This document shows positions 5,436 through 63,931 of a DNA stretch of 64,000 nucleotides, piece by piece (position 1 is the first letter of the stretch; the number at the start of each line of letters is the position of its first letter). The position numbers were made by a program, and so were the translations under genes. This DNA is from a virus. Taxonomy: Duplodnaviria; Caudoviricetes. The stretch lies in IMG/VR virus record IMGVR_UViG_3300025723_000017, positions 32,001-96,000 of that record. One strand, given 5' to 3'. A model generated the notes under the pieces. It saw nothing but the letters and a program-made list of their open reading frames with translations, was not told the origin of the DNA and did no database searches.

Positions 5436-6034
5436 TGAGCGCAGATGTTGATTTAGATTTAGCTGATAGAGAACAAGTTCTAAAACTTATTAGAGCAATT
5501 CCGGCGTGTCAACTTAATCAAGGACAAGTTAGAAGACATAATTCAGGCATTTATGTAACTGACATTCCTTATGATCCATTGAATCAATGTGCAGCAATAG
5601 ACTACGAAACTGCCGAAAAACGCGGATATTTTAAGATAGATTTATTGAATATGTCGGTATATCAACTTATAAAATCTCAACAACACTATGATGAGTTATT
5701 GGGTAAGGAACCTGATTGGCAACGTCTTTGGACTGATGTTCAATGGGCTAAACAAATTGTTCATATAGGTAACTATACTGATTTATTGGCAAAGATGAAG
5801 CCGGATTCCATCACACGTATGGCAGCATTTATAGCTATTATACGTCCAGGTAAAGCACATTTGCAAAATCGACCATGGAAGGAAGTTTTTGATTCAGTAT
5901 GGGATGGTGATGCTAGTCTTGGGTTTGTGTTCAAACATTCGCATTCGATTTCCTATGCGGCACTTGTTGCGCTACATATGAATCTCTTAGACGAAAAAAC
6001 AGTTACTAGTCCGGCATCCGGCGTACAAGAGTAA
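5435..6034 (+). CDS. minimal DnaE/Pol III alpha-like polymerase core
   Basis: DVDLD, RHNSG, GYFKIDLL, IIRPG, FKHSHSISYA in the order of the DnaE motifs. Confidence 0.75.
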   Translation: MSADVDLDLADREQVLKLIRAIPACQLNQGQVRRHNSGIYVTDIPYDPLNQCAAIDYETAEKRGYFKIDLLNMSVYQLIKSQQHYDELLGKEPDWQRLWTDVQWAKQIVHIGNYTDLLAKMKPDSITRMAAFIAIIRPGKAHLQNRPWKEVFDSVWDGDASLGFVFKHSHSISYAALVALHMNLLDEKTVTSPASGVQE

Positions 6035-6410
6035 TGGATTTTCTTTTGGATTTCTTACGGGCTATTTCAGCTAAACTACATGCTGGTCCATGTATTATTT
6101 CTAAATCTTTATTGGCAAACGTTCTAGTATAACCTCTAAATGGTTCCCATTCCTGTTTAAGAAATATGTTAATGGGAATGCTTCTATTGCTTTCCCACCA
6201 CCAAACATTAGCTAATTCTAAAAATAATTTTTTAGCTTCTATATTGACTATGCTGCCAAAATCGTACATGGTGGTGATAGCATCATCGCGGTTCTGAATT
6301 ATCCCTACATATTCTTGGGAAGCATACACACACAGCGTTATAAACGGATATTTTTCGCTTAATTGATTAAAAATTTCTTTATTCATTGAATGGCAGTTAT
6401 CATATAGCAA
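6006..6410 (-). CDS. hypothetical protein
   Basis: ORF with TAAATA-type site at its 5' end on the minus strand. Confidence 0.7.
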   Translation of the reverse strand: MLYDNCHSMNKEIFNQLSEKYPFITLCVYASQEYVGIIQNRDDAITTMYDFGSIVNIEAKKLFLELANVWWWESNRSIPINIFLKQEWEPFRGYTRTFANKDLEIIHGPACSLAEIARKKSKRKSITLVRRMPD

Positions 6411-6456: not shown

Positions 6457-7605
6457 ATGTATTCAACCACTGCTTATCTTTATCAGCAACGAACAACCGT
6501 GCTATTGCTCGACAGCAGTGGGCAATATTTCACAATGAGGTACAATCCAGTGTACGCTAAAAAACTAACTTTAAATTTAGGAGTCGATAATGTACTCTTA
6601 TTTTCCTTTGTTAACCAAGATGAAAAACCAGTTAACGTAAACGGCTGCACCTTTACATTTCGTATCACTGATACACAGGGCACAAATTTATTACTACAAG
6701 AACCAATGACCATACTTAATGCAGCTACTGGTCAAGTAAAAGTTTATGTTCCTGCTGCTGATACATTGGAATTAATTGCACAACCTGCTAGTTATTCCAT
6801 TACTGTTCAAAGTGGTAATCTAAATCAAGCAGTATTTACAAATTCTCAAGCTGGTGCCCGTGCTCCTATAGACCTCGTTAATTCAGTATTTCCACAATTT
6901 ATACCTTCAATTCCTTGCACCATACCAACTACTAGTTTAAGTTCGCAAGCACAATTAGATGGCACAGCATACCAAAACTATCCTGGGTGGGCTGGTAATT
7001 GGTATTATGGTGGTAATGGAAGTAATTTTTTCAATAATTATCAAAATACAGAATTCCATTCGAGTTTTATCCAACCTCGTAATTATGTAACTACAATTCA
7101 ATTGGATTTGATCGGATATACAGGTACTATCAAAGCACAATGGGCACAAAATTATGAGAGTATTTGGTACAATGTTACTGAATCCACTACTTATCTGAAC
7201 AAAACTGGCACCATTTATATGAACGTATTAGGGTGGTATCCGTTATTACGTTTATGTTTTAACAACAGTATATTTTCTACACCAAATCCTCCTGGGGTAC
7301 CAGCTTCGGCCTATGCGGTATGTACTGACGGTGTATTGACTGATGTAGTATTACAAAATGGCGGGTCAGGATACTTAGCTCCGCCTAAAGTTGATATTTT
7401 AGGGAACGGGTCAGGTGCGATAGTCACAGCTAACATTGGTGGAAACGGTACAGTTACTGGGTTTAACATTATCAGTGGTGGATCAGGATATTGGCCGATA
7501 CCATCAGGTGGTGTGAATCCATCTGCGTATCCGGTGCCGCCAGCTAGTCAAGGTGCATTTCCGATTATATCAACTGGCTATGCTACAAACATTCTTTACC
7601 GTTAA
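6457..7605 (+). CDS. virion structural protein (BppU-like N-terminus, GGSGY repeats)
   Basis: 'KPVNVNGCTFTF','AATGQVKV' and two 'GGSGY' tail-type repeats; late promoter upstream. Confidence 0.6.
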   Translation: MYSTTAYLYQQRTTVLLLDSSGQYFTMRYNPVYAKKLTLNLGVDNVLLFSFVNQDEKPVNVNGCTFTFRITDTQGTNLLLQEPMTILNAATGQVKVYVPAADTLELIAQPASYSITVQSGNLNQAVFTNSQAGARAPIDLVNSVFPQFIPSIPCTIPTTSLSSQAQLDGTAYQNYPGWAGNWYYGGNGSNFFNNYQNTEFHSSFIQPRNYVTTIQLDLIGYTGTIKAQWAQNYESIWYNVTESTTYLNKTGTIYMNVLGWYPLLRLCFNNSIFSTPNPPGVPASAYAVCTDGVLTDVVLQNGGSGYLAPPKVDILGNGSGAIVTANIGGNGTVTGFNIISGGSGYWPIPSGGVNPSAYPVPPASQGAFPIISTGYATNILYR

Positions 7606-7642
7606 ATTTGAATTAGCATAGAACAATCTGCTAAAATATAGT

Positions 7643-7732
7643 ATGAATTACTATGTATATCTGTATCTGCGTAAAAACGATCTAACACCTTACTATGTTG
7701 GTAAAGGCAAAGGCTCGCGAGCATATGATTGA
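7643..7732 (+). pseudogene. 29-codon remnant of a GIY-YIG homing endonuclease
   Basis: MNYYVYLYLRKNDLTPYYVGKGKGSRAYD*. Confidence 0.75.
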
Positions 7733-8714
7733 TATCTTGTCTTTTTTGCCAGCTAAACGTAAACAAACATCAAGCGGGTGGTGGAGTTTTTGCGCGCCGT
7801 GTTGCATACATAACGGAGATAGTCAGGATCGACGTATGCGTGGCGGACTCAAAGTCAACGCAGATGGATGGAGTTATCATTGTTTTAATTGTAATTTTAC
7901 AGCCAGTTTTGTATTAGGACGCAATCTTTCTATTAAGGCTCGTAAATTATTATCGTGGGTTAATGTTCCGCAAGAAGAAATCGAACGTGTTAATCTAGAA
8001 AGTATGAAGCATCGATCTATGGAAGGATTGATTCACGATCGTAATCAAACAGCTGAGGCATTATTAGGAATTCATTTCAAAGAAAGTGCTTTGCCGCCGA
8101 GTTCGATTCTATTGGATAATCAAGATCATGCTAAGGAGCTAGATTATTTAAAATCTAGACATATTCCAACAGATTATCCTTTTTTAGTTCGAACAGAAAA
8201 TGTCGGGATACACTGGTCACGGCCTCACATTATAATCCCATTTACATATAAGAATATTATAGTAGGACATACTAATAGATTTTTAGATAATAAAACTCCC
8301 AAATACATAAATTCTATACAATCTGGATATGTATTCGGTACTGATTTACAACAGACTGACTGGCAATATGTAATTGTAGTCGAAGGAGTGTTTGACGCAT
8401 TAAGCATCAATGGACTAGCAGTTATGCACAGCACAATTAATGATGCACAAGTCAGGCTAATAAGAAATTTAGGAAAAGAAATAATCGTAGTTCCAGATCA
8501 AGATTTGGCTGGTATGGAATTAGTAGATCGTGCAATAGAATTAGGATGGGCAGTTAGTATTCCTGATTGGCCTGACAATGTTAAAGATGTAAATGATGCA
8601 GTAATAAAAATTGGCAGGATTGCAACACTGCTAACTATATTGCAATCTAGAGAAACTAGTAAAATTAAAATTGAATTGAGGAAAAGACAACTTGTTAAAC
8701 GATTACGGCATTGA
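7725..8714 (+). CDS. DNA primase
   Basis: Zn-binding CxxC...HCFNC, PKY, TOPRIM EGVFD, DQD, KDVND. Confidence 0.9.
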   Translation: MIDILSFLPAKRKQTSSGWWSFCAPCCIHNGDSQDRRMRGGLKVNADGWSYHCFNCNFTASFVLGRNLSIKARKLLSWVNVPQEEIERVNLESMKHRSMEGLIHDRNQTAEALLGIHFKESALPPSSILLDNQDHAKELDYLKSRHIPTDYPFLVRTENVGIHWSRPHIIIPFTYKNIIVGHTNRFLDNKTPKYINSIQSGYVFGTDLQQTDWQYVIVVEGVFDALSINGLAVMHSTINDAQVRLIRNLGKEIIVVPDQDLAGMELVDRAIELGWAVSIPDWPDNVKDVNDAVIKIGRIATLLTILQSRETSKIKIELRKRQLVKRLRH

Positions 8715-17643: not shown

Positions 17644-18936
17644 ATGTCATATTTAAAAAGTTTTTTAACGAGTCCATGGACCATATTAGGTTCTATTATA
17701 TTAGGGGTACTGACGGGAATTTATACTCCTGAGTTTGCAGTAAATTTTGAACCTGTTGGCGGTATCTATATTAGCTTATTAAAAGTTGTTGTATTGCCAT
17801 TCTTATTTGCTACTATTATGGTAGGTGTAATTAATCTACTGCAAAAAGAAGGCAGTCAGACTATGATTAAGCGTATCATTTTGGGATTCCTAGCAAGTAT
17901 GTTTCTTTCCTCGCTGATAGGAGTGGGTACAGTGGTTATTACAGGAAGCGAAATGACCACTGAAAAGAAAATACAATTGGGAGCATTGGTTAATAATAAA
18001 GATCAATCTTCGGACATGAATATTACATTGCACGAACCTATGCCTGTAACTGAAAAAGTTAATCCAATGGCAGTAGCCGATAAATTTATTCCTGAAAATA
18101 TTTTTGCCACATTGGATCGCGGAGAAAGTTTAAAGATTGTTATATTTTGTTTAATATTTGGTATTGCATTAGGCAGTATCAAATCCCCAGGACAGCGTAT
18201 TATAGTGGATATATTCCAAAGTGTACAACTAGCTAGTATCAGTATTTTCAAATTCTTAAACTATGGATTACCATTTGCTCTATTGGCTATGATTAGCGCA
18301 CAAGTAGCCAAAGTAGGCGTAGGTATATTTGGCACAATGATAGAATTTATCTATCAGCAGTTTATTGGCGGCATGTTAATCGTTATTGTAGGAACACTAG
18401 TAATTTGGGTAAGAGCTGGTGGCAGTATTATGAATGTAATAAGAGAAACCAAAGAAACGTTGATTGTTGCAGTAAGCTCACGCAGTAGTTTGGCATGTAT
18501 TCCTTATGCACAAGAAGCACTGTCTAGATTACAATTTGACAAATCTGGAGTTGAACTTACGGTTCCATTAAGTTTTACTGTTAATCGAGTTGGTAGTGTA
18601 TTGTATTATGCTATTGCGACTGTTTTCATTGCCAATATATATGATACTCCAATGACAATTGGAACCTTAATGGTGGTATTATTTGGCAGTATATTAGCTG
18701 GATTAGCCAGTGCTGGTACTACTGGTATACTAACAGTGGCTACTGTGGCTGTTGTTTGCGATTTATTAAAATTGCCGAGCGAGGCAGTGCTAGTACTATT
18801 GATAGCCGTTGACCCATTGATGGATATGATTCGTACTGCAAGTCATGTACATGGTAATGTTGCAGTGACTGCATTTGTATGTGATAAGGAAAAACAAGAT
18901 GAGCGAAATCAAACAATTCCTACTCAATCTACTTGA
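17644..18936 (+). CDS. dicarboxylate/amino acid:cation symporter (DAACS/GltP family)
   Basis: Multi-TM; 'LLKVVVLP','FIPENIF','SSRSS','DPLMDMIRT'. Confidence 0.9.
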   Translation: MSYLKSFLTSPWTILGSIILGVLTGIYTPEFAVNFEPVGGIYISLLKVVVLPFLFATIMVGVINLLQKEGSQTMIKRIILGFLASMFLSSLIGVGTVVITGSEMTTEKKIQLGALVNNKDQSSDMNITLHEPMPVTEKVNPMAVADKFIPENIFATLDRGESLKIVIFCLIFGIALGSIKSPGQRIIVDIFQSVQLASISIFKFLNYGLPFALLAMISAQVAKVGVGIFGTMIEFIYQQFIGGMLIVIVGTLVIWVRAGGSIMNVIRETKETLIVAVSSRSSLACIPYAQEALSRLQFDKSGVELTVPLSFTVNRVGSVLYYAIATVFIANIYDTPMTIGTLMVVLFGSILAGLASAGTTGILTVATVAVVCDLLKLPSEAVLVLLIAVDPLMDMIRTASHVHGNVAVTAFVCDKEKQDERNQTIPTQST

Positions 18937-20193: not shown

Positions 20194-20391
20194 ATGTTGA
20201 CATTTGTAAAATCATTAGTTATACTAGCAGTATTAGTAGGCACATACCATGGTATGTCATGGGCAATTGACAAAAAAGCCGATGAAAAAGCATTATCTAT
20301 GATAATGACTGAATATCAAACAAGTGCTCGCGAAGATGCAAGAGATCAGGCAATGAAAGCAATCGTAGATTCATATGTAGCTAAAAAATAA
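20194..20391 (+). CDS. small membrane-anchored protein
   Basis: SD AAGGA, N-terminal hydrophobic helix. Confidence 0.65.
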   Translation: MLTFVKSLVILAVLVGTYHGMSWAIDKKADEKALSMIMTEYQTSAREDARDQAMKAIVDSYVAKK

Positions 20392-21833
20392 TGGCCTATT
20401 CAGATAAAGTTTTAGATCATTATGAAAATCCTCGCAATGTGGGTTCATTTGCCAAAGACGATGCTGATGTTGGCACAGGCATGGTAGGAGCTCCTGCGTG
20501 TGGAGATGTAATGAAGTTACAGATAAAGGTATCAGATGGCGTTATTACAGATGCAAAGTTTAAGACCTACGGATGTTTAACTAGTAATACCCCTGTTAAT
20601 ACTCCAACATGCGTTAAAAAAATCAAAGATTTAAATATCGGAGATGAGGTACTGGCTTGGGATGGCAATCGCATTGTTAATCAAAAAATAAGAGATATAA
20701 TCAAACATTCAGTTGATATCAGTGATTTGTTGGTAGTTTCATTCCAACGAGAAACAAGTAGAAAAAATATCAATCCCGGCACCTTTTCGTTGATTTGTAC
20801 CAAAGAACACATATTTTGGAATGCCGATAATAATCCTGTAGAAGCACAACAACTACAGGTGGGGCAAGAATTATATGAAATAACCGAACATGAGTTAAGA
20901 ATTCTTACCAACAATAGACATCGAACAGAAATTAAACAGAAAAATAGCGCAAGAATGAAAAAATGGAACACCGAATTTGATCATTCTGTATTGCCACAGA
21001 ATCAACCCGGATATGTATGTAAGAACCCAGAAGCTAAAAAGCAACGCTCCAGTGCTGCTTCAATTAAAAACTGGCAAGATCCTAGTTATATTGAAAAGTG
21101 GCAACAAGGAATGGCACAACGAGATTGGTCTAAACCTACTAGTATTGAAAAAAAATATATTGATTTATTTGAAGAAAATAATGTAGCGGCAAGATGGAGT
21201 GCTGGAACAATATGGATTCAAACCACATCAGGCCCCGCAAGTCCGGATTTTATTGTTCCCGGCAAGAAAAAATGTATAGAAGTTTATACAAAGAAAATGC
21301 CAAAGTTTATGCAAGATAGATCAGAAGAATCGGATTATGTCCAAAAAAGAAGTCAACAACTTGCAACAGCAGGATACGATTCATTATTTTTGTCAGTAGA
21401 AGAAATTGAACAGGCACTGCCTAAGGTACAGAATTTTATACATAATGGCATGAAAATTATCGATATTTCTCCAATCACACATCATAATCAACTACGAGGA
21501 TGTGAGCGTGATGACAAAAATGTTGTAGTATATGATTTAAAATTAGAGGATGGTGCCCATGTATTTTTTACAAATAGAGTCGGCTCACACAACTGCGGAT
21601 CAGCAATCGCAAGTAGTTCTTTGGTCACTGAATGGGTCAAAGGAAAATCTCTCGAAGCTGCTGGATGTATTAGAAATAGCGACATTGCCCAAGAACTGGC
21701 ACTTCCACCAGTCAAAATCCACTGTTCAATCCTTGCCGAAGATGCAATTAAAGCAGCAATAGCTGATTATAGAAACAAACATGAAACTACCAATAGTTCG
21801 ATGGCCAGATCCAGTACTACTGACACCATGTAA
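20391..21833 (+). CDS. iscU: Fe-S scaffold IscU interrupted by an intein
   Basis: MAYSDKVLDHYENPRN, APACGD, FKTYG|CGSAIASSS, LPPVKIHC. Confidence 0.95.
   Translation: MAYSDKVLDHYENPRNVGSFAKDDADVGTGMVGAPACGDVMKLQIKVSDGVITDAKFKTYGCLTSNTPVNTPTCVKKIKDLNIGDEVLAWDGNRIVNQKIRDIIKHSVDISDLLVVSFQRETSRKNINPGTFSLICTKEHIFWNADNNPVEAQQLQVGQELYEITEHELRILTNNRHRTEIKQKNSARMKKWNTEFDHSVLPQNQPGYVCKNPEAKKQRSSAASIKNWQDPSYIEKWQQGMAQRDWSKPTSIEKKYIDLFEENNVAARWSAGTIWIQTTSGPASPDFIVPGKKKCIEVYTKKMPKFMQDRSEESDYVQKRSQQLATAGYDSLFLSVEEIEQALPKVQNFIHNGMKIIDISPITHHNQLRGCERDDKNVVVYDLKLEDGAHVFFTNRVGSHNCGSAIASSSLVTEWVKGKSLEAAGCIRNSDIAQELALPPVKIHCSILAEDAIKAAIADYRNKHETTNSSMARSSTTDTM
20574..21593 (+). mobile_element. 340-aa intein with Vsr/DUF559-like endonuclease domain
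   Basis: Starts CL, block B CTKEH, block F VYDL, ends SHN before Cys; internal 'PTSIE','PDF','IEV'. Confidence 0.93.
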
Positions 21834-31645: not shown

Positions 31646-32586
31646 AATGCCGCCCTCAACTTAGAATCTTCTGGCAAAAACTTACCAGTCAATTGCAATC
31701 GATCTCGTCTATCTAACCATTCTGCTTGTAAGTCATCAGGAATATCAGCACGGGTGTGATCCAAAATTTCAAAATAGATATCAATCATTCGGTCATAATC
31801 AGCTGTTGAAAGTTGATATTGTAACAGAGTATTGAGTTTGTAATAATCTTCAGCGATACTACGTGTAATATCAACCCCAAGTCTTTGGTTGAGAATTGTT
31901 AGGGCCTGATCTGGTTCAGTAGCCAACATCATTTTACTGATCCTATCTTTAACACCAACTCCATGACTGAATGATAATCCAGCGACACGAAACGCCGATA
32001 ACATTAGTTGTGTACGATGTAATCCTTTGACATTCGAATCTGTACAATATTCTGCCGAATAGTATGAGAACCTTAACCAATCCAAATCTCCCACCATCCA
32101 ATCAATTTGCACGCCTGCATCAATGTCATTTAACTGTGCATCTTTTTGTGGAAATAGAGTAAACATTCCGCCTACGTCTACTTTCTTTTCATTGCAATGT
32201 ATACTAGTAGCATTTTTATTGATATATTTGGTCAAATGAATCAGGAACGCCTTAATACGTAATTGATCGTCTGTAGAAGTGATCGCCCTGCGTTTAAGTT
32301 TATTAAAAGTAATAGATACTTCTGATGGATCAATGTTCCATTGCGCTACTGCATTGTCTGACAAATCTTTATCTAATATAGTTGAAGGGGCAACCCCCAA
32401 ATCGATATCACCTGACTGGGGCTTCTTGCCAGTAGATCCTAGTGATTCAAATTGAATATTATTAAAAATATCTGCTTTATTTGGAAACAATTCACACAAT
32501 TCAGAAAAATATGCAGACAATGTTGGCTTGATATTTTCTCTTAAAATTGGGGTTGTTTTACCAGTAAAGACATTGCCGCCCATCAT
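31642..32586 (-). CDS. Pol-beta superfamily nucleotidyltransferase
   Basis: GGNVF, LGSTGKK..SGDIDL, VQIDWM. Confidence 0.75.
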   Translation of the reverse strand: MMGGNVFTGKTTPILRENIKPTLSAYFSELCELFPNKADIFNNIQFESLGSTGKKPQSGDIDLGVAPSTILDKDLSDNAVAQWNIDPSEVSITFNKLKRRAITSTDDQLRIKAFLIHLTKYINKNATSIHCNEKKVDVGGMFTLFPQKDAQLNDIDAGVQIDWMVGDLDWLRFSYYSAEYCTDSNVKGLHRTQLMLSAFRVAGLSFSHGVGVKDRISKMMLATEPDQALTILNQRLGVDITRSIAEDYYKLNTLLQYQLSTADYDRMIDIYFEILDHTRADIPDDLQAEWLDRRDRLQLTGKFLPEDSKLRAAL

Positions 32587-42482: not shown

Positions 42483-43673
42483 ATGACTGAAAAAATTAAT
42501 CACTGCTCATTTTGCGGCAAACATAAAAATTCAGTAGTGAAATTAATAGTTGGACACAATGTTGCTATTTGTAATGGATGTATCGAATTTTGTGACAAAT
42601 TATTAAAAAATAAACAAAGCACAGAAAAATCTGCTACTATGATGGACATACCAAATCCACAAGATATCAAAAATTATTTAGATCAATACGTTGTAGGGCA
42701 AGATAATGCTAAGATAGTGTTATCAGTAGCAATTACTAATCATTACAAACGTATTGGCAATAGTGATAACGAAATCGATAAAGCTAATATTTTAATGGTT
42801 GGTCCTACTGGAACAGGTAAAACTTTGTTGGCTAAAACAGTGGCAGAATATTTAAATGTTCCGTTTGCCATAGCTGATGCTACTACACTAACGGAAGCAG
42901 GGTATGTTGGGGATGATGTTGATTCAGTAATAATGAGACTATATCAAAATGCTGATTCAGATGTTGAAAAAACACAGCGTGGTATTATATTTTTAGACGA
43001 AATAGATAAAATTGCTCGCAAAAGTGAAAGTGCCACTGTTAGTAGAGATGTGTCGGGAGAAGGGGTACAACAGGCTTTACTAAAATTAATCGAAGGCACT
43101 AAAATTAAAATTAGTCCAACTAATTCACGTAGAACTGAAACCACAGTAGAAATTGATACTTCTAATATTTTATTCATTGCCGGGGGTGCATTTGTTGGGC
43201 TCGATAAAATTATAAAAAATCGTGTACGTGGCACTGCGATGGGGTTCGGTGCCGAACTCACTAAAGATGATGCAGATGAAACTGTTAACACTATGCCAGA
43301 TGATTTAGTTAAATATGGTATGATTCCTGAGTTTGTGGGAAGATTTAGTAATTTGGTAAATTTAGAAGAGCTTAGTAAAGATCAACTGATCAGTATTTTA
43401 ACAGAGGTTAAACATAATTATGTAGGGCAATATCAATGGTTGTTTAGTCAAGATGGGGTCGATCTTAATTTTGAAAAAGATTCTCTTAATTTAATTGCTG
43501 AACGCACACTTAAGACTAAAACAGGTGCCCGTGGTTTGCATACGGAATTAGAACGTATACTACTTCCACACATGTTTGATTTGCCAAAATATCGCAAACA
43601 AAGTATATTATCAGTAGCAATTACGTTAAATTTAGTAAATACTCCAGTGACACTTGCACAGGAGAATGAATGA
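42483..43673 (+). CDS. clpX: ClpX unfoldase
   Basis: CSFC Zn domain, [20 protein letters not shown] loop, GARGL. Confidence 0.95.
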
Positions 43674-57120: not shown

Positions 57121-58545
57121 ATGCGTTATTATGAATTCCGTTATCTAATAGAAGGTTATCCACAAGCACAAGCTGCTTTTATACAAGCAGGTGCCGACAC
57201 AGCCTCTGTACAAAAAACTATAGCCGACTTCAAACAATTAGTTACACGCAATCAAATAAAAGACATTAATCAAAAGAACATAGACTGGTGGGCAAAACAA
57301 GGTTGGGATAAGTTTAGCCAATTTGTCAATCAAGCAGCAGCCGTACCCAGTAAATCTCAAATTGAAAAAAAGAAATTACCCGGACAAAGTATTAATTTAG
57401 TTGATAATGCTCAATGGTTTATAGTAATTCCACTTGATAAAGATGCCAGTTGTTTTCATGGGAAAAATTCAGATTGGTGTACTACAAAAGTACATCAAAG
57501 TTATTTTGAACAATATTTTTATAATAGACAAGTAACTCTAATATATTGCTTTAATAAATCAACCGGCGGTATGTGGGCCATAGCCGTACATAAAGACACA
57601 GATAAATTCGAAATGTTTGATCAGAAAGATAGAAGTTTAACAGTAGATGAATTTAAACGACAAACCGGGTTAGATCCTGCTCAACTACGTGATATGGCCT
57701 TAGGTGATGTACATCAACCTAAAGTACAAGCCACACGTGATAAATGGAAAGATTCCAAAGCATTGACTAATAAATTATTGAATGACTTACCAGAAAAAAC
57801 TAGATCATCTGAGATAGAAAAACAATTGCTATATAATAAATCTAGAAATGAATGCCTGAAGTATATTCGCAAGATCGGATCAATTGATTCTAATGATTTT
57901 CCATTGGCAATAGAGATAGCAGCAGTTTCACTAGATAGTCATGCAATACAACATATTAAAAATCCAAAACCTATTGTGCAAAAAACAGCAGTTTCACAAT
58001 ATGGTGGAGCAATACAATATATTATCGAAGCTGGTATTACACCCACGGAAGCAGTACAAATAGCAGCAGTTTCAAATGATGGTAGTGCAATAGTTTATAT
58101 TATCGACGCTGGTATTACGCCTAGTGAAGCGGTACAACGGGCAGCAGTTTCACAATATGGTGGAGCAATACTATATATTATCCGCGCTGGTATTACGCCT
58201 AGTGAAGCGGTACAAAAGGCAGCAGTTTCAAATGATGGTAGTGCAATAGTTTATATTATCGACGCTGGTATTACGCCTAGTGAAGCAGTGCAAATAGCAG
58301 CAGTTTCACAATATGGTGGAGCAATACTATATATTATCCGCGCTGGTATTACGCCCACGGAAGCGGTACAAAAAACAGCAGTTTCACAACTTGGTCGTGT
58401 AATACGATATATTATCGACGCTGGGATTAAACCCACGGAAGCAGTACAAATAGCAGCAGTTTCAAATGATGGGCTTGCAATAGAATTTATTATCGACGCT
58501 GGTATTACGCCCAGTAAAGCGGTAAGGCGAGCGTATTACAGCTAG
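57121..58545 (+). CDS. probable head protein with 26-aa helical repeats (DUF4116-like)
   Basis: TAAATA promoter, MRYYEF start, 'ASC..G....WCT', repeats AVS..G.AI.YII.AGITP.EAVQ. Confidence 0.7.
   Translation: MRYYEFRYLIEGYPQAQAAFIQAGADTASVQKTIADFKQLVTRNQIKDINQKNIDWWAKQGWDKFSQFVNQAAAVPSKSQIEKKKLPGQSINLVDNAQWFIVIPLDKDASCFHGKNSDWCTTKVHQSYFEQYFYNRQVTLIYCFNKSTGGMWAIAVHKDTDKFEMFDQKDRSLTVDEFKRQTGLDPAQLRDMALGDVHQPKVQATRDKWKDSKALTNKLLNDLPEKTRSSEIEKQLLYNKSRNECLKYIRKIGSIDSNDFPLAIEIAAVSLDSHAIQHIKNPKPIVQKTAVSQYGGAIQYIIEAGITPTEAVQIAAVSNDGSAIVYIIDAGITPSEAVQRAAVSQYGGAILYIIRAGITPSEAVQKAAVSNDGSAIVYIIDAGITPSEAVQIAAVSQYGGAILYIIRAGITPTEAVQKTAVSQLGRVIRYIIDAGIKPTEAVQIAAVSNDGLAIEFIIDAGITPSKAVRRAYYS
57986..58530 (+). 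repeat. seven 78-bp coding tandem repeats
   Basis: CAGCAGTTTCA...GGTATTACGCC recurs every 78 bp. Confidence 0.9.
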
Positions 58546-58647: not shown

Positions 58648-59244
58648 ATGCCCAGTTTAATCCCCATGGTAGTAGAGCAAACCTCAAAAGGCGAAAGATC
58701 CTACGATATCTATAGTCGGCTATTACGAGACCGTATTGTTATGCTGGATACAGATGTCAATGAAACTAGTGCAAGTCTAGTAGTGGCACAGATGTTATTT
58801 CTCGAAGCCGAAGATCCCGCTGCAGACATCCTATTTTATATTAATTCACCAGGTGGGTCAGTTACAGCGGGCATGGCTATTTACGATACCATGCAGTTTA
58901 TTCAGTGTGACGTTTCAACTATTGTCATGGGACAGGCCTGTAGTATGGGTAGTCTACTGGCACAAGCAGGCACCGCTGGCAAACGTTTAATCCTTCCCCG
59001 CGCTAGACATATGATTCATCAACCATCAGGTGGTGCACGTGGACAAGCTACGGACATGCTGATTCAAGTTAATGAAATTCTCAAGATGAAACGGGAGTTA
59101 ACTGGAATCTACGTGACGCATAATTCTGCAAACAAGACATACAGTGAACTGGAACAGGATATGGAACGGGACAACTTTATGTCAGCCGAAGAAGCTGTGG
59201 CATATGGTCTAGCTGACAAAATTGTTGCCAAACGAGGACAGTAA
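58648..59244 (+). CDS. clpP: ClpP protease
   Basis: [33 protein letters not shown]. Confidence 0.96.
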
Positions 59245-60023: not shown

Positions 60024-60166
60024 CTAAATTACTGTATCTAGATGATACTGTAAGTATGATTCTATACAGTGTGGAGATAGAAAAATTTGTGGCCAAAATT
60101 TTTTGATCAGCTGATTTAAATCCTGATGAAGTTTTTGACCCCTGGGGTCCTACATAGTGGAAGAAG

Positions 60167-60221
60167 ATTGATTTATACGATCCAGGATTGACAAAATTGA
60201 TTTATACGATCCAGGATTGAC
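60167..60221 (+). repeat. 26-bp direct repeat x2
   Basis: ATTGATTTATACGATCCAGGATTGAC at 60167 and 60196. Confidence 0.9.
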
Positions 60222-60296
60222 GCAAAGCTAGTATACATACAATGTATTGTAGCTAAAAAACAACACCGGGGTGTCCGAAGTTTTTGAAATAGCTAA

Positions 60297-60325
60297 ATTA
60301 TAGCATGTAATTTTATAAAATGCAA
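60297..60325 (-). promoter_or_regulatory. sigma70 promoter (GA-free)
   Basis: TTGCAT-17-TATAAT with extended -10 TG. Confidence 0.7.
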
Positions 60326-60355
60326 GCGCATAAAATGCAAGCGCATAAAATGCAC

Positions 60356-60400
60356 GCTGTAACGCATTAGTACAGCGTAGTGTACATAATGCGTTACAGC
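60356..60400 (-). terminator. long hairpin/terminator after the 61028 gene
   Basis: GCTGTAACGCATTA/TAATGCGTTACAGC 14-bp arms plus inner GTACA/TGTAC. Confidence 0.65.
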
Positions 60401-60413
60401 GTGCTTGCTACGC

Positions 60414-61028
60414 TTACAGCGTGCTTGCTACGCTTACAGTTTGCTTGTTAGCTGTAATGCTAACTAAGTTAGCTAGTGCAATAGTGCGCACTTTTACAGT
60501 ATGTAACACGTTGTTAGCTACGTTGTGCGTTACAGCACTTTGCGCTAGCAGTTTGTTGCGTGCGCTAGCAGTTAAGTATTGTGCTACTTGTAGCTTAGTT
60601 GCTAATTGGCCGTTAATAAAATACATACTGCTAGCGTTGTTAAATATAGCGTATAAGTACAGCGCATTAGTTTGCTTGTGCTTAACTATGCTATGTACGT
60701 TAGTGTGTGTAAAATAGTTACTTTGCGTTGTAAAGTTAGCTACGTTGCTAGCGTTGTTAGCTTCAATATTATTTGCACTTTTTTGTACAGCGTTAGCGTA
60801 AACGTTAGTAAATGCGCTAATGTTGCTAAAAAGTTGCACGTTAGCACTAACTACTTTTTTAATGCTAACTAAGTTGTGTTTTGCGCTAGTAGCTACTTGC
60901 GTAACGTAGCATACGTTAGCAAACGTAGTGCTTTTGTTAGCAAGTAATACTTGTATAGTTTGTGCGCTAATTGTGTTAGCGTTAGCGTGTGCTGTAAGTG
61001 CTTGTTGTGCTTGCTGTAAATTTAACAT
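60414..61028 (-). CDS. early protein nearly lacking D/E/G/P/W
   Basis: 204-aa ORF downstream of three tandem promoters; leader AAGCGTAAACAAAAATG shared with the 61645 gene. Confidence 0.8.
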   Translation of the reverse strand: MLNLQQAQQALTAHANANTISAQTIQVLLANKSTTFANVCYVTQVATSAKHNLVSIKKVVSANVQLFSNISAFTNVYANAVQKSANNIEANNASNVANFTTQSNYFTHTNVHSIVKHKQTNALYLYAIFNNASSMYFINGQLATKLQVAQYLTASARNKLLAQSAVTHNVANNVLHTVKVRTIALANLVSITANKQTVSVASTL

Positions 61029-61075
61029 TTTTGTTTACGCTTATAAAATGTGTTTAAGTTGTTTACTGCAACTAA

Positions 61076-61282
61076 ATTATACTGCTAACTGCGCTAATTT
61101 GCAAGTGCTACTTTGTTGCAAAAAAACAACGCTTGCTAACTGCTGTACTGCTTACTATGCAGTAATTATACTGCTAACTGCGCTAATTTGCAAGTGCTAC
61201 TTTGTTGCAAAAAAACAACGCTTGCTAACTGCTGTACTGCTTACTATGCAGTAATTATACTACTTGCGTAGCTAATACGCAA
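61076..61282 (-). promoter_or_regulatory. three sigma70 promoters at 89-bp period
   Basis: TTGCAA/TTGCGT-17-TATAAT at 61076-61104, 61165-61193, 61254-61282; two identical 89-bp units. Confidence 0.85.
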
Positions 61283-61297
61283 GTAGTATTTTGTAAG

Positions 61298-61645
61298 TTA
61301 TGCGCTAGCAAATAAGCGCAACAATACGCTATTGTTGTCCGTTGTTACAATTTGCGCATTGTAACGCTTTGCAATAATTAGCAAGTTAGTGCATACTTGC
61401 GCTTTAGCTACTTTAACTGCTATAAACTTAGCACGCAAGTTAGTATAAACACGCTTAGTAAAATATTGTGCTTGTACTGCTTGCGCTAGTGCTTGCGCTT
61501 GTGCGTGTTGTTCGTTTGTGTACAAGTGCGCATTTTTTGCATTTTGCGCTTGCACTTGTAACACGCTTATATAACGTGCGTGCTTTACAGCGTTGTTTTT
61601 TGTTGTTAAAACAACGTGCGCTACTGCTTGAGGCTTTTTTTGCAT
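61298..61645 (-). CDS. early basic protein nearly lacking D/E/G/P/W
   Basis: 115-aa ORF downstream of two promoters, same leader as the 61028 gene. Confidence 0.75.
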   Translation of the reverse strand: MQKKPQAVAHVVLTTKNNAVKHARYISVLQVQAQNAKNAHLYTNEQHAQAQALAQAVQAQYFTKRVYTNLRAKFIAVKVAKAQVCTNLLIIAKRYNAQIVTTDNNSVLLRLFASA

Positions 61646-61697
61646 TTTGTTTACGCTTTATAAAATGTTGTTAAGCTACTTGTTTACTGCAAGCTAA

Positions 61698-61817
61698 ATT
61701 ATACTGCTAACTGTGCTAATTTGCAAGTGCTATTTTGTTGCACGTTTACAACACTTGCTAACTGCTGTACTGCTGTACTGCAAGCTAAATTATACTGCGC
61801 ATTGTTTTAATTTGCAA
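61698..61817 (-). promoter_or_regulatory. two sigma70 promoters
   Basis: TTGCAA-17-TATAAT at 61698-61726 and 61789-61817. Confidence 0.85.
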
Positions 61818-61854
61818 GTGCTATTTTGTTGCAAAAAAACAACGTAATTAACGC

Positions 61855-61971
61855 TTGCAATTTAGCGCAAACGACTTTACAATGTAGTTGTTGTTAGCAG
61901 TTAGCAGTTAGCAAGTGTTGTTTTTTTGCAACAAAGTAGTGCTTGCAAGTTAGCGCAAAATGCGTTACAAT
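61855..61971 (+). promoter_or_regulatory. two divergent sigma70 promoters
   Basis: TTGCAA-17-TACAAT at 61855-61883 and 61943-61971. Confidence 0.85.
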
Positions 61972-62002
61972 GTAGTTGTTGTTAACAAAAAGGAGCTGTA
62001 CT

Positions 62003-62233
62003 ATGTTAAATAGCACAAACGTTCGTCGCCTAGGCGAGATGGCGGCAGAATTTGGCCTTGATTCTTTTTTCAGCACAATGCGAGTGTTGCATAATTGCGA
62101 CAACAAAGACCAGCTTAATACGCAGGACGAAGCTGTACTGTATAACATAGCAGAGGAAGCTGTGCAATACGTTGTGCAGTATCAAATGTCAGCACTAAAA
62201 GAAGCTTTAGCAGAACTTAACGCTAAAGTGTAA
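62003..62233 (+). CDS. small early protein, paralog of 62322
   Basis: AGGAG SD; V.RL...A.E.GLD.F...M..L...D.K..L shared. Confidence 0.75.
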   Translation: MLNSTNVRRLGEMAAEFGLDSFFSTMRVLHNCDNKDQLNTQDEAVLYNIAEEAVQYVVQYQMSALKEALAELNAKV

Positions 62234-62244
62234 CAAAAAAGCAC

Positions 62245-62273
62245 TTGCGTTTTAATAGCGCAAGTGCTACAAT
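62245..62273 (+). promoter_or_regulatory. sigma70 promoter (GA-free)
   Basis: TTGCGT-17-TACAAT. Confidence 0.75.
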
Positions 62274-62321
62274 GTAGTTGTTGTGCAGTAAGTAGTTTAA
62301 CTTTTAACAAAAGGATCTACT

Positions 62322-63655: not shown

Positions 63656-63931
63656 TTAACTGTTGATGGTGCGGAAGGGACTGTAAATGTCTTCAACCAA
63701 TCGTTGCTGTGCAGTGGGACTCCACTGGCTGAAATCCTTAACTGACCCAGCCTCAAGATATATTCCTGTCTCCTGCTGCTGTGTATAGTCAGGGTCTTCG
63801 TATACTACTTCGAATGATGTCATTGCGTCAATCCTGGTTAAAATATTATTATACTGTCTGGGCTCCTGTCTGTCAAGCCCAGGTGATTTCGGTACCCTGG
63901 ATGGTGTGATCCAGTCCCTGCTCGATGACAT
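63656..63931 (-). CDS. hypothetical protein
   Basis: ORF ending YSPFRTINS; start uncertain. Confidence 0.5.
   Translation of the reverse strand: MSSSRDWITPSRVPKSPGLDRQEPRQYNNILTRIDAMTSFEVVYEDPDYTQQQETGIYLEAGSVKDFSQWSPTAQQRLVEDIYSPFRTINS

Follow-up and report, generated by a model that had tools for sequence, protein, structure and literature searches.

Near-absence of GA, GG, TC and CC from two transcription units of a giant-phage contig

What would keep some 1.7 kb of functional phage DNA almost free of GA and GG (G followed by a purine, GR) and of their complements TC and CC (a pyrimidine followed by C, YC)? The question arises from a 64,000-nucleotide stretch of a Caudoviricetes genome (the window; positions 32,001 to 96,000 of IMG/VR record IMGVR_UViG_3300025723_000017), in which an initial annotation, made from the letters alone, had singled out the interval 60289-61990 as an island nearly devoid of these four dinucleotides. 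The source contig, taken from IMG/VR, spans 154,059 bp and is 45% complete according to CheckV, which marks it as a giant-phage fragment. By direct count, the 1702 bp of the interval (A 451, C 290, G 345, T 616) contain GA 2, GG 2, TC 3 and CC 2—nine occurrences, versus the 316 predicted from base composition (91, 70, 105 and 49, respectively). The recount reproduces the annotation's manual figure of nine against roughly 300 expected, at the same six loci: 60608/60610, 60763, 61338/61339, 61512, 61630/61632 and 61873. Five of these loci fall, by codon phase, at Gly140 and Glu89 of one open reading frame (ORF204) and at Asp103, Glu45 and Pro5 of another (ORF115), in agreement with the G/E/D/E/P assignment made earlier, and the sixth is the GA at 61873 in a promoter spacer. 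The remaining twelve dinucleotides all occur, and those described as plentiful are indeed so (AG 94, CT 130, AA 163, TT 237, CG 75), with GC, at 181 copies, enriched threefold; the GC content of the island, 37%, equals that of the genome.

The borders are as abrupt as had been claimed, the nearest outside occurrences being a GA at 60286 on the left and, on the right, a GG at 61992 within AAGGAG, the ribosome site ahead of the first gene on the plus strand; we accordingly delimit the island as 60287-61991. Sliding windows of 200 bp over the whole contig held 35.7 +/- 8.3 GA/GG/TC/CC each, with a minimum of 11 away from the island and its flanks and counts of 8 to 12 at the island's two edges. 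The seven longest gaps in the contig without any of the four dinucleotides (575, 322, 241, 173, 153, 119 and 118 bp) all lie in the island; the next-longest, of 100 bp, covers an adjacent intergenic promoter (62213-62313), and no gap elsewhere exceeds 69 bp. The near-absence is therefore confirmed as real and as unmatched elsewhere in the contig.

Several ready explanations for such a pattern were tried and rejected. An assembly artefact is excluded, since homologous genes in independent metagenomes carry the same ban. The footprint of C-to-T hypermutation was dismissed on the grounds that GC content is unchanged and that the enriched dinucleotide is GC rather than TT or AA. Avoidance of UV or oxidative damage fails because TT is not shunned and the gain per site would be far too small against the loss of five amino acids, and protein composition was rejected as the primary cause because untranslated DNA and codon junctions obey the ban too. 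When the island and its flanking DNA were compared with 50,697 phage records by megablast and blastn, nothing matched, and no island was present within 10 kb in the relatives found through a neighbouring 474-amino-acid protein (L001-L004).

The island consists of two minus-strand sigma70 transcription units, those of ORF204 and ORF115, together with divergent promoters that serve the adjoining genes on the plus strand. Five tandem minus-strand promoters of a single family (TTGCAA or TTGCGT, N17, TATAAT) are predicted—three before ORF204 (61104-61076, 61193-61165 and 61282-61254, spanning 61076-61282) and, by sequence match, two before ORF115 (61726-61698 and 61817-61789, spanning 61698-61817)—and the ORF204 promoter region holds a perfect 89-bp tandem duplication (61075-61163 / 61164-61252). 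On the plus strand, two tandem predicted promoters of the form TTGCAA-N17-TACAAT (61855-61883 and 61943-61971, spanning 61855-61971) would drive an unpurged gene at 62003-62233, the first of the normally composed plus-strand genes, which begin at 62003 behind an ordinary AAGGAG. Scoring of sigma70 hexamers returned seven sites with 9-10 of 12 matches, all with a 17-bp spacer, and copies of the promoter family were located at 61104, 61193, 61282, 61726, 61817, 61855, 61943 and 62245. The last of these, a predicted TTGCGT-N17-TACAAT at 62245-62273, lies in the 100-bp GR/YC-free intergenic promoter module (62213-62313) between two normally composed plus-strand genes. A promoter-like TTGCAT-N17-TATAAT at the left edge (60297-60325, minus strand) is directed out of the island. 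The divergent spacer at 61783-61890 (108 bp), which no mapped promoter transcribes, keeps the ban with the single exception of the GA at 61873.

The messages of both genes are unusual at their 5' ends. The ORF204 leader (61029-61075, minus strand) is A-rich and unstructured, with a folding energy of -2.4 kcal/mol that is no better than that of shuffled sequences, and presents AAGCGTAAAC ahead of the ATG in place of a Shine-Dalgarno site; the same motif, again in an unstructured A-rich leader and again without a Shine-Dalgarno site, precedes the ATG of ORF115 (61646-61670). Such a site is impossible in both genes because the ban forbids it, and the tandem promoters predict leaders of 40 to about 220 nucleotides that lack one. 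Among fully purged genes of related phages, 24 of 26 contain no GGAG, GAGG or AGGA and carry AAGTAGTAA or AAGYGTAA instead. More broadly, AAGTAGTAA, AAGTGTAA or AAGCGTAAAC stand where the Shine-Dalgarno site would be in fully purged genes, both in the window (61029-61048, 61646-61665) and in the related loci L013, L014, L017 and L027; judging from their letters, these motifs resemble AAGGAGG in which a pyrimidine has replaced the second G of every GG, and they may act as a weak substitute ribosome site.

At its 3' end, the ORF204 message terminates in a long stem-loop with a U-rich tail (60336-60418, minus strand; -51.2 kcal/mol, z -5.9) that is built without the four dinucleotides, and a 14-bp hairpin immediately 3' of ORF115 (61257-61289, minus strand; -19.7 kcal/mol, z -4.8) overlaps the third ORF204 promoter. 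A bidirectional terminator had also been supposed at 60250-60285, where the sequence does not fold. We considered bidirectional transcription as the cause of a two-strand ban and rejected it, since the island contains plus-strand hairpins with T-runs, at which antisense RNA would end; no convincing inward-pointing plus-strand promoter was found in the island. The hairpins in question lie at 61091-61108, 61180-61197 and 61257-61294. Read on the plus strand, the leaders of both genes also resemble promoters directed away from the genes (TTAACA-16-TAAAAT at 61022-61049 and TTTGCA-16-TAAAAT at 61639-61666).

Both proteins are real and conserved, in spite of a severely reduced amino acid alphabet. 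ORF204 (60414-61028, minus strand) encodes a conserved early protein of 204 residues drawn from a 15-letter alphabet, with one Gly, one Glu, no Asp, Pro or Trp and a net charge of +12; ORF115 (61298-61645, minus strand) encodes a second conserved early protein of 115 residues with one Pro, one Glu, one Asp and a net charge of +13. When the island was simulated 1000 times with a first-order Markov model, the longest open reading frame reached 151 amino acids, short of ORF204. Homologues of both genes are found on another giant-phage contig (L005, GC 47%), with 53% identity for ORF204 (L005:7216-7797, E 3e-47) and 53% for ORF115 (L005:5932-6264, E 2e-20). A word-indexed search recovered 307 homologues of ORF204 and an exhaustive search 162 clusters at 50% identity, so that by sequence the protein belongs to a large uncharacterised phage family; the ORF115 family is small, with eight database homologues and two copies in related loci. 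Searches of Pfam and PHROGs yielded nothing for ORF204 or its normally composed homologues, and for ORF115 no Pfam match and only a marginal PHROGs hit (phrog_7986, unknown function, E 0.0096). A sequence-profile search of the PDB gave no match, a structure search of BFVD matched only uncharacterised phage proteins, and the best ESM Atlas score, 0.76, belonged to a viral hypothetical protein. The AlphaFold2 model of ORF204, a protein with no Asp, Pro or Trp and a single Gly and Glu, attains a pLDDT (predicted local distance difference test) score of 94.9, with the small beta-barrels of YaeO/Rof, Hfq/Sm and WYL as possible structural neighbours; that of ORF115 (pLDDT 76) shows two helices and a small alpha/beta unit.

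Comparison within the ORF204 family indicates how this composition arose. Close members contain a median of three D/E/G/P/W residues per 200 amino acids, as compared with 15-25% in distant ones (27-45% identity). At conserved columns, recoded members replace D by N or A, G by N, S or A, P by A and E by Q, and the sole Gly of the window's ORF204 occupies the most conserved Gly position of the family. Lys plus Arg content is halved in recoded members, offsetting part of the acidic loss (net charge +10 vs +2). On a maximum-likelihood tree, the recoded state requires about 12 changes, against 29 with shuffled labels, and is clustered. Recoding has therefore occurred several times, from normally composed ancestors.

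To what unit of the genome does the ban apply? We approached this through 24 related IMG/VR loci, on contigs of up to 363 kb with GC contents of 37-49%, and the presence of the ban in relatives, on which the initial annotation had made its proposal depend, was borne out in homologous genes of independent metagenomes. L005 carries the homologues of ORF204 and ORF115 in two distinct GR/YC-free islands (5849-6308 and 7157-7861) with about 850 bp of ordinary genes between them. The ORF204 homologue lacks all four dinucleotides in five loci (L012, L013, L014, L015 and L027), is nearly free of them in ten more, partly purged in L008, L021 and L022, and near-normal in L007, L010, L023, L025 and L026. 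Small early genes nearby in the relatives are likewise purged unit by unit, promoter through terminator, with the purge typically reaching 30-90 bp upstream of the -35 hexamer. These observations show that the ban applies at the level of the transcription unit. A 3.6-kb array in one locus (L017:7800-11400) comprises six fully purged single-gene units, each with the same promoter, 5' hairpin and tandem terminators, with short stretches that violate the ban (GCGCGGG ... GCGCGCCCC ... GGGGC) between one unit and the next. Several contigs begin inside the ORF204 homologue or end close to it (L018:2-409, L028:3-200, L029:3-200, L016:835-1434, L019 and L010); these breaks could be physical ends of the genome, or could reflect assembly that failed at repeats or at DNA of odd composition.

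The relatives further reveal a strand asymmetry. We found 24 genes that are free of YC on the sense strand only, mostly encoding acidic proteins and retaining GGAG ribosome sites, alongside 32 open reading frames free of both pairs, some of which are probably spurious, and two that are free of GR only, both probably spurious. Across 56 purged genes, sense-strand YC amounts to 92 occurrences versus 1888 expected, and is zero in 29 genes. In the YC-only genes, the codon frequency of Asp, Glu and Gly is 0.20 (0.18 in controls) and that of Pro 0.001 (0.042); just 4 of 1166 codons are of the NYC type, Y|C codon junctions stand at 0.004 vs 0.16, and synonymous YC is cut about 40-fold or more. Avoidable GR in the same genes is down just 1.6- to 5.5-fold, with Gly GGR codons at 25% vs 41%, G|R junctions at 0.29 vs 0.58 and GR-holding Arg codons at 10% vs 55%. 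Fully purged genes, for their part, have no GR-holding Arg codon (0 of 72), G|R junctions at 0.01 vs 0.58, and permitted codons exclusively for Ser, Arg, Leu, Ile, Thr, Ala, Val and Phe. Observed-to-expected ratios of GA and GG are 0.04 and 0.02 in fully purged genes and 0.73 and 0.54 in YC-only genes—both are depleted, and GA is not singled out. At equal synonymous cost, then, sense YC is selected against far more strongly than sense GR in one gene class and equally in the other, which ties the effect to the polarity of transcription and argues against a duplex-DNA reader blind to gene orientation. Across the relatives, message-strand avoidance of TC and CC is shown to be universal and near-absolute, and the ban on GA and GG complete in some genes and partial in acidic ones.

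The genome of the window offers its own example of the asymmetric class. A third purged gene lies on the minus strand some 5.5 kb rightward of the island, beyond the window's end (genome 99174-99500, i.e. window 67174-67500), and encodes an acidic protein of 108 residues; its message strand holds none of the 25.6 YC expected, whereas its GR is normal (38 against 50). It has a predicted TTGCAA-N17-TATAAT promoter, a predicted distal TTGACT promoter and a GGAG ribosome site that has been kept. The genes that flank it (genome 98475-99081 and 99735-99965) are partially purged.

Most early units of the same genome are, by comparison, ordinary. About 50 near-consensus TTGACA-N17-TATAAT units were found, none of them purged, and their promoters and the first 100 bp transcribed carry the four dinucleotides freely. 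The promoter modules are near-identical (TTGACAATT...TCAA...TATAAT) and head arrays of micro-proteins from window position 63876 to about 120 kb of the genome, mostly beyond the window. We also looked for genes that could modify DNA at the banned steps. No TGT/DpdA homologue (PF01702) was detected in eight records—the window's contig and seven related ones, of which one is a complete 363-kb genome whose own ORF204 homologue is unpurged and the rest are fragments that CheckV puts at 23-62% complete. QueC (PF06508), the one gene of preQ0 synthesis searched for, was not found in the window's own contig, and five related records, all fragments except the 363-kb genome, yielded no hydroxymethylase-type ThyA, no cytidine/dCMP deaminase and no methyltransferase of the C5 or N4/N6 type; an ordinary ThyA is present in one relative.

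How do these results bear on the explanation first put forward, an early zone that avoids a GR/YC-directed reader? Its general idea gained strength from the sigma70 promoters, the two real genes and the evidence of selection: selection keeps functional early DNA free of GR and YC, and hence something reads GR/YC steps. Both specific mechanisms attached to it lost ground. Hypermodification of G or C, with the first genes left unmodified for host RNA polymerase, is weakened by the approximately 50 unpurged units and by the failure to find DpdA, QueC, a methyltransferase, a hydroxymethylase or a deaminase in what are mostly fragments. Avoidance of host DNA targets by first-injected DNA is weakened by a purge that proceeds per transcription unit and is strand-specific in many genes.

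We regard it as an even bet that the two early transcription units of the island are 'stealth' units. In the scheme we propose, host sigma70 RNA polymerase would fire from the five tandem strong promoters into ORF204 and ORF115, and selection would have rewritten promoters, leaders, codons, codon junctions and terminators until neither strand kept a G followed by a purine. Because the ban is gene-local, only gene-local harm can select it, namely premature termination, cleavage or modification of the message, or a block on the template. The ban would thus conceal the genes from one or more factors acting locally on expression, most likely on the single-stranded RNA as it is being made; that some reader acts at the level of the transcript seems to us as probable as not, or slightly more so. 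The protein products would be first responders, required before the phage disarms the reader.

For the YC half, Rho is the best named reader and the only known one with exactly the right dinucleotide. Its primary site binds 5'-YC, with up to six CC/UC per transcript (PMC12360218; PMC13323073), and T4 early transcripts are limited by it (PMC2988021). Rho binding 5'-UC/CC would kill long, poorly translated leaders like these, and the message-strand depletion of UC and CC expected of Rho avoidance is what we found (92 vs 1888, with 24 sense-YC-only genes vs two GR-only), its polarity tracking gene orientation. For the GR half, the likely target would be the purine core of ribosome-binding sites, as hit by mRNA-directed attacks such as those of CmdT and RegB; an attack of this type would account for the lost Shine-Dalgarno sites. 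CmdT ADP-ribosylates the adenine of GA in single-stranded mRNA, blocking translation and hitting Shine-Dalgarno sites (PMC11618068), and RegB of T4 cleaves early mRNAs at GGAG (PMC2988021). We nonetheless hold the identification of Rho as the YC reader to be tentative and on the doubtful side, with a still undescribed reader at least as likely. In that version, which we consider conceivable yet short of probable, an undescribed host or phage factor would abort expression at pyrimidine-C and, in a second mode, at G-purine, on the nascent transcript or on the template, and giant phages would reply with stealth first-responder genes written in a 15-letter alphabet.

Several observations sit uneasily with stealth units directed against a transcript reader, and with Rho. 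The ban covers DNA without mapped transcription—the divergent spacer at 61783-61890, the -35 hexamers (TTGCAA for TTGACA), promoter spacers and, in most related units, the 30-90 bp upstream of -35—so that a pure RNA reader would need read-through or extra promoters. Cooperative multi-YC binding by Rho demands less than the exact zeros seen in 29 of the 56 genes. Contrary to a Rho-only prediction, residual YC is not enriched toward 3' ends (22, 25, 15, 17 and 13 by fifths of gene length). Nor is the composition of fully purged genes a Rho-avoiding one, as C (22.6%) exceeds G (17.2%) and purines make up 55% vs 54% in controls; in YC-only genes G is above C. The approximately 50 other early units remain unpurged, though Rho would see them too. 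Finally, the GA/GG half and the purged promoter DNA are unexplained by Rho, and the GR half requires a second reader.

Apart from the unpurged units, these are difficulties that a mark on the DNA template would resolve. If G followed by a purine were chemically marked, whether by the phage (e.g., with 7-deazaguanine) or as a host-inflicted adduct, and the mark stalled or misdirected host RNA polymerase on the template strand or at the promoter, then a few indispensable early genes would have to do without template-strand GR, and without GR on either strand where the protein permits. One rule would span both halves of the ban and predict a strict template strand and a graded non-template strand; purged promoter DNA, -35 hexamers and the divergent spacer would all be accounted for, exact zeros would follow from single-hit blocks, and there is a precedent in CAjan DpdA, which places preQ0 at GA and GGC (PMC7544227). 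CAjan, however, modifies GGC and not every GG, and the records searched offered neither TGT/DpdA (eight records, all fragments but the 363-kb genome with its unpurged homologue) nor QueC (the window's contig) nor the hydroxymethylase-type ThyA, deaminase or methyltransferases mentioned above (five related records). The reading is also contradicted by about 50 consensus TTGACA promoters of the same genome which, with their early genes, are rich in GR and YC. Moreover, host polymerase reads major-groove modifications such as T4 glucosyl-hydroxymethylcytosine without trouble. On balance we judge a template mark unlikely. We are more sceptical still of a shut-off factor of the phage's own, made or injected—whether an RNase, an enzyme that modifies RNA or a terminator like Alc—which would act at these dinucleotides and silence host and ordinary early messages, with the purged genes having to stay on. 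T4 has both kinds, in RegB and in Alc, the latter terminating transcription at discrete, frequently occurring sites of unmodified DNA (PMC2988021), just a small subset of early units is purged, and the purged state differs between related phages, as would fit a phage-encoded factor; against this, no candidate gene was identified, and the normally composed middle and late genes would need some other protection.

Two further explanations fare much worse. It is highly improbable that the island is the first DNA to enter the cell, avoiding restriction sites, Dnd/Ssp motifs, DarT sites and CRISPR protospacer-adjacent motifs. Many of these motifs do contain GA, GG, TC or CC, and several related contigs begin or end at or near the ORF204 homologue (L018, L028, L029, L016 and L019), which could equally be assembly breaks. 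Yet the purge runs gene by gene with normal DNA between, it is strand-specific in many genes, palindromic sites remain possible under the ban (GCGC, AGCT, TGCA, CTGCAG and others, the first three of them abundant), and since DNA cleavage elsewhere would still be lethal, clearing 1% of the genome would be no help. Least credible of all is that no nucleic-acid reader is involved and that the pattern is a by-product of odd protein composition, repeats or assembly. The region is repeat-rich, and Q, A, N and T abound in its proteins, but the ban spans leaders, promoters, terminators and codon junctions (G|R at 0.01 vs 0.58) with permitted codons only, recurs in independent metagenomes of 37-49% GC, and affects a protein family that also exists with normal composition.

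Set beside known systems, the stealth units resemble several in part. The purine bias of the coding strand under runaway transcription has been interpreted as Rho avoidance (PMC13323073), and shares with our case a strand-specific avoidance of message-sense UC and CC in transcripts of host RNA polymerase, and a selection at the nucleotide level that shapes codons and amino acids. Unlike in that system, the ban described here is near-total and limited to a few transcription units, C is kept (in AC and GC) and exceeds G in fully purged genes, GA, GG and promoter DNA are banned as well, and five amino acids are lost. CmdTAC (PMC11618068) makes a dinucleotide-specific attack on mRNA and would select GA-free messages without Shine-Dalgarno sites; however, it covers GA alone and not GG, TC or CC, and CmdT fires late, on a capsid protein trigger, whereas the genes studied here are early. 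RegB and Alc of T4 (PMC2988021) are phage factors acting on short features of early units, thereby sorting the genes that stay on, although neither has YC specificity and no homologue was identified here. CAjan DpdA (PMC7544227) has a G-then-purine target on both DNA strands in common with the ban. The differences are that no DpdA (eight records) or QueC (the window's contig) was found and that most early units here are unpurged. To our knowledge, no phage with a DpdA-type modification keeps modification-free early genes. A more distant parallel is provided by vertebrate RNA viruses, which avoid CpG and UpA, dinucleotides read by ZAP and RNase L. There, too, a virus drops a dinucleotide that a host factor reads on viral RNA, but the depletion is genome-wide and statistical and concerns eukaryotic viruses, in contrast to a phage ban that is absolute, gene-local and alters the protein alphabet. 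Literature searches turned up no description of GR/YC-free phage genes.

The ban is a very clean signature of selection: it strips Asp, Glu, Gly, Pro and Trp from conserved proteins that are predicted to fold, replaces Shine-Dalgarno sites, alters the -35 consensus and arose repeatedly. To the initial description, the present work adds the normally composed ancestry and several origins of the recoded genes, the strand test at equal synonymous cost, the comparison with about 50 sigma70 units that are not purged, and a search for modification genes that came out negative. The signature implies a dinucleotide-specific reader of early phage expression in many aquatic bacteria, and the likely counter-measures are to be sought among the purged genes. 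Should Rho be the reader, no more extreme instance of its influence on coding sequence would be known, and ORF204 would be a candidate for an anti-Rho protein; otherwise an immunity or shut-off mechanism of a new kind is still to be found, and an undescribed reader would amount to a prokaryotic counterpart of ZAP and CpG. Judging from the structural model of ORF204, the recoded family is also a natural experiment in building folded proteins from reduced alphabets, and the rule offers a simple flag for candidate first-responder genes in uncultured phage genomes.

Some features of the surrounding genome complete the picture of the locus. Just left of the island, two 29-bp direct repeats (AAGATTGATTTATACGATCCAGGATTGAC) occupy 60164-60221, each with TTGAC at its end. 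The neighbouring 474-amino-acid protein (window 57121-58545) matches phrog_17056 and DUF4116, and its C-terminal half consists of about eight 33-residue repeats (AVSQYGGAI.YII.AGITPSEAVQ). The phage also encodes ClpP (window 58648-59244), ClpX (42483-43673) and a NifU/IscU scaffold into which a Hint (intein) domain is inserted (20391-21833). Finally, a gene for a 430-amino-acid symporter (window 17644-18936) is 69% identical to one on a 105-kb contig (L030) of a Burkholderiales metagenome-assembled genome from Kiruna, a match that could be a weak hint at the host or could stem from a phage contig having been binned into that assembly.

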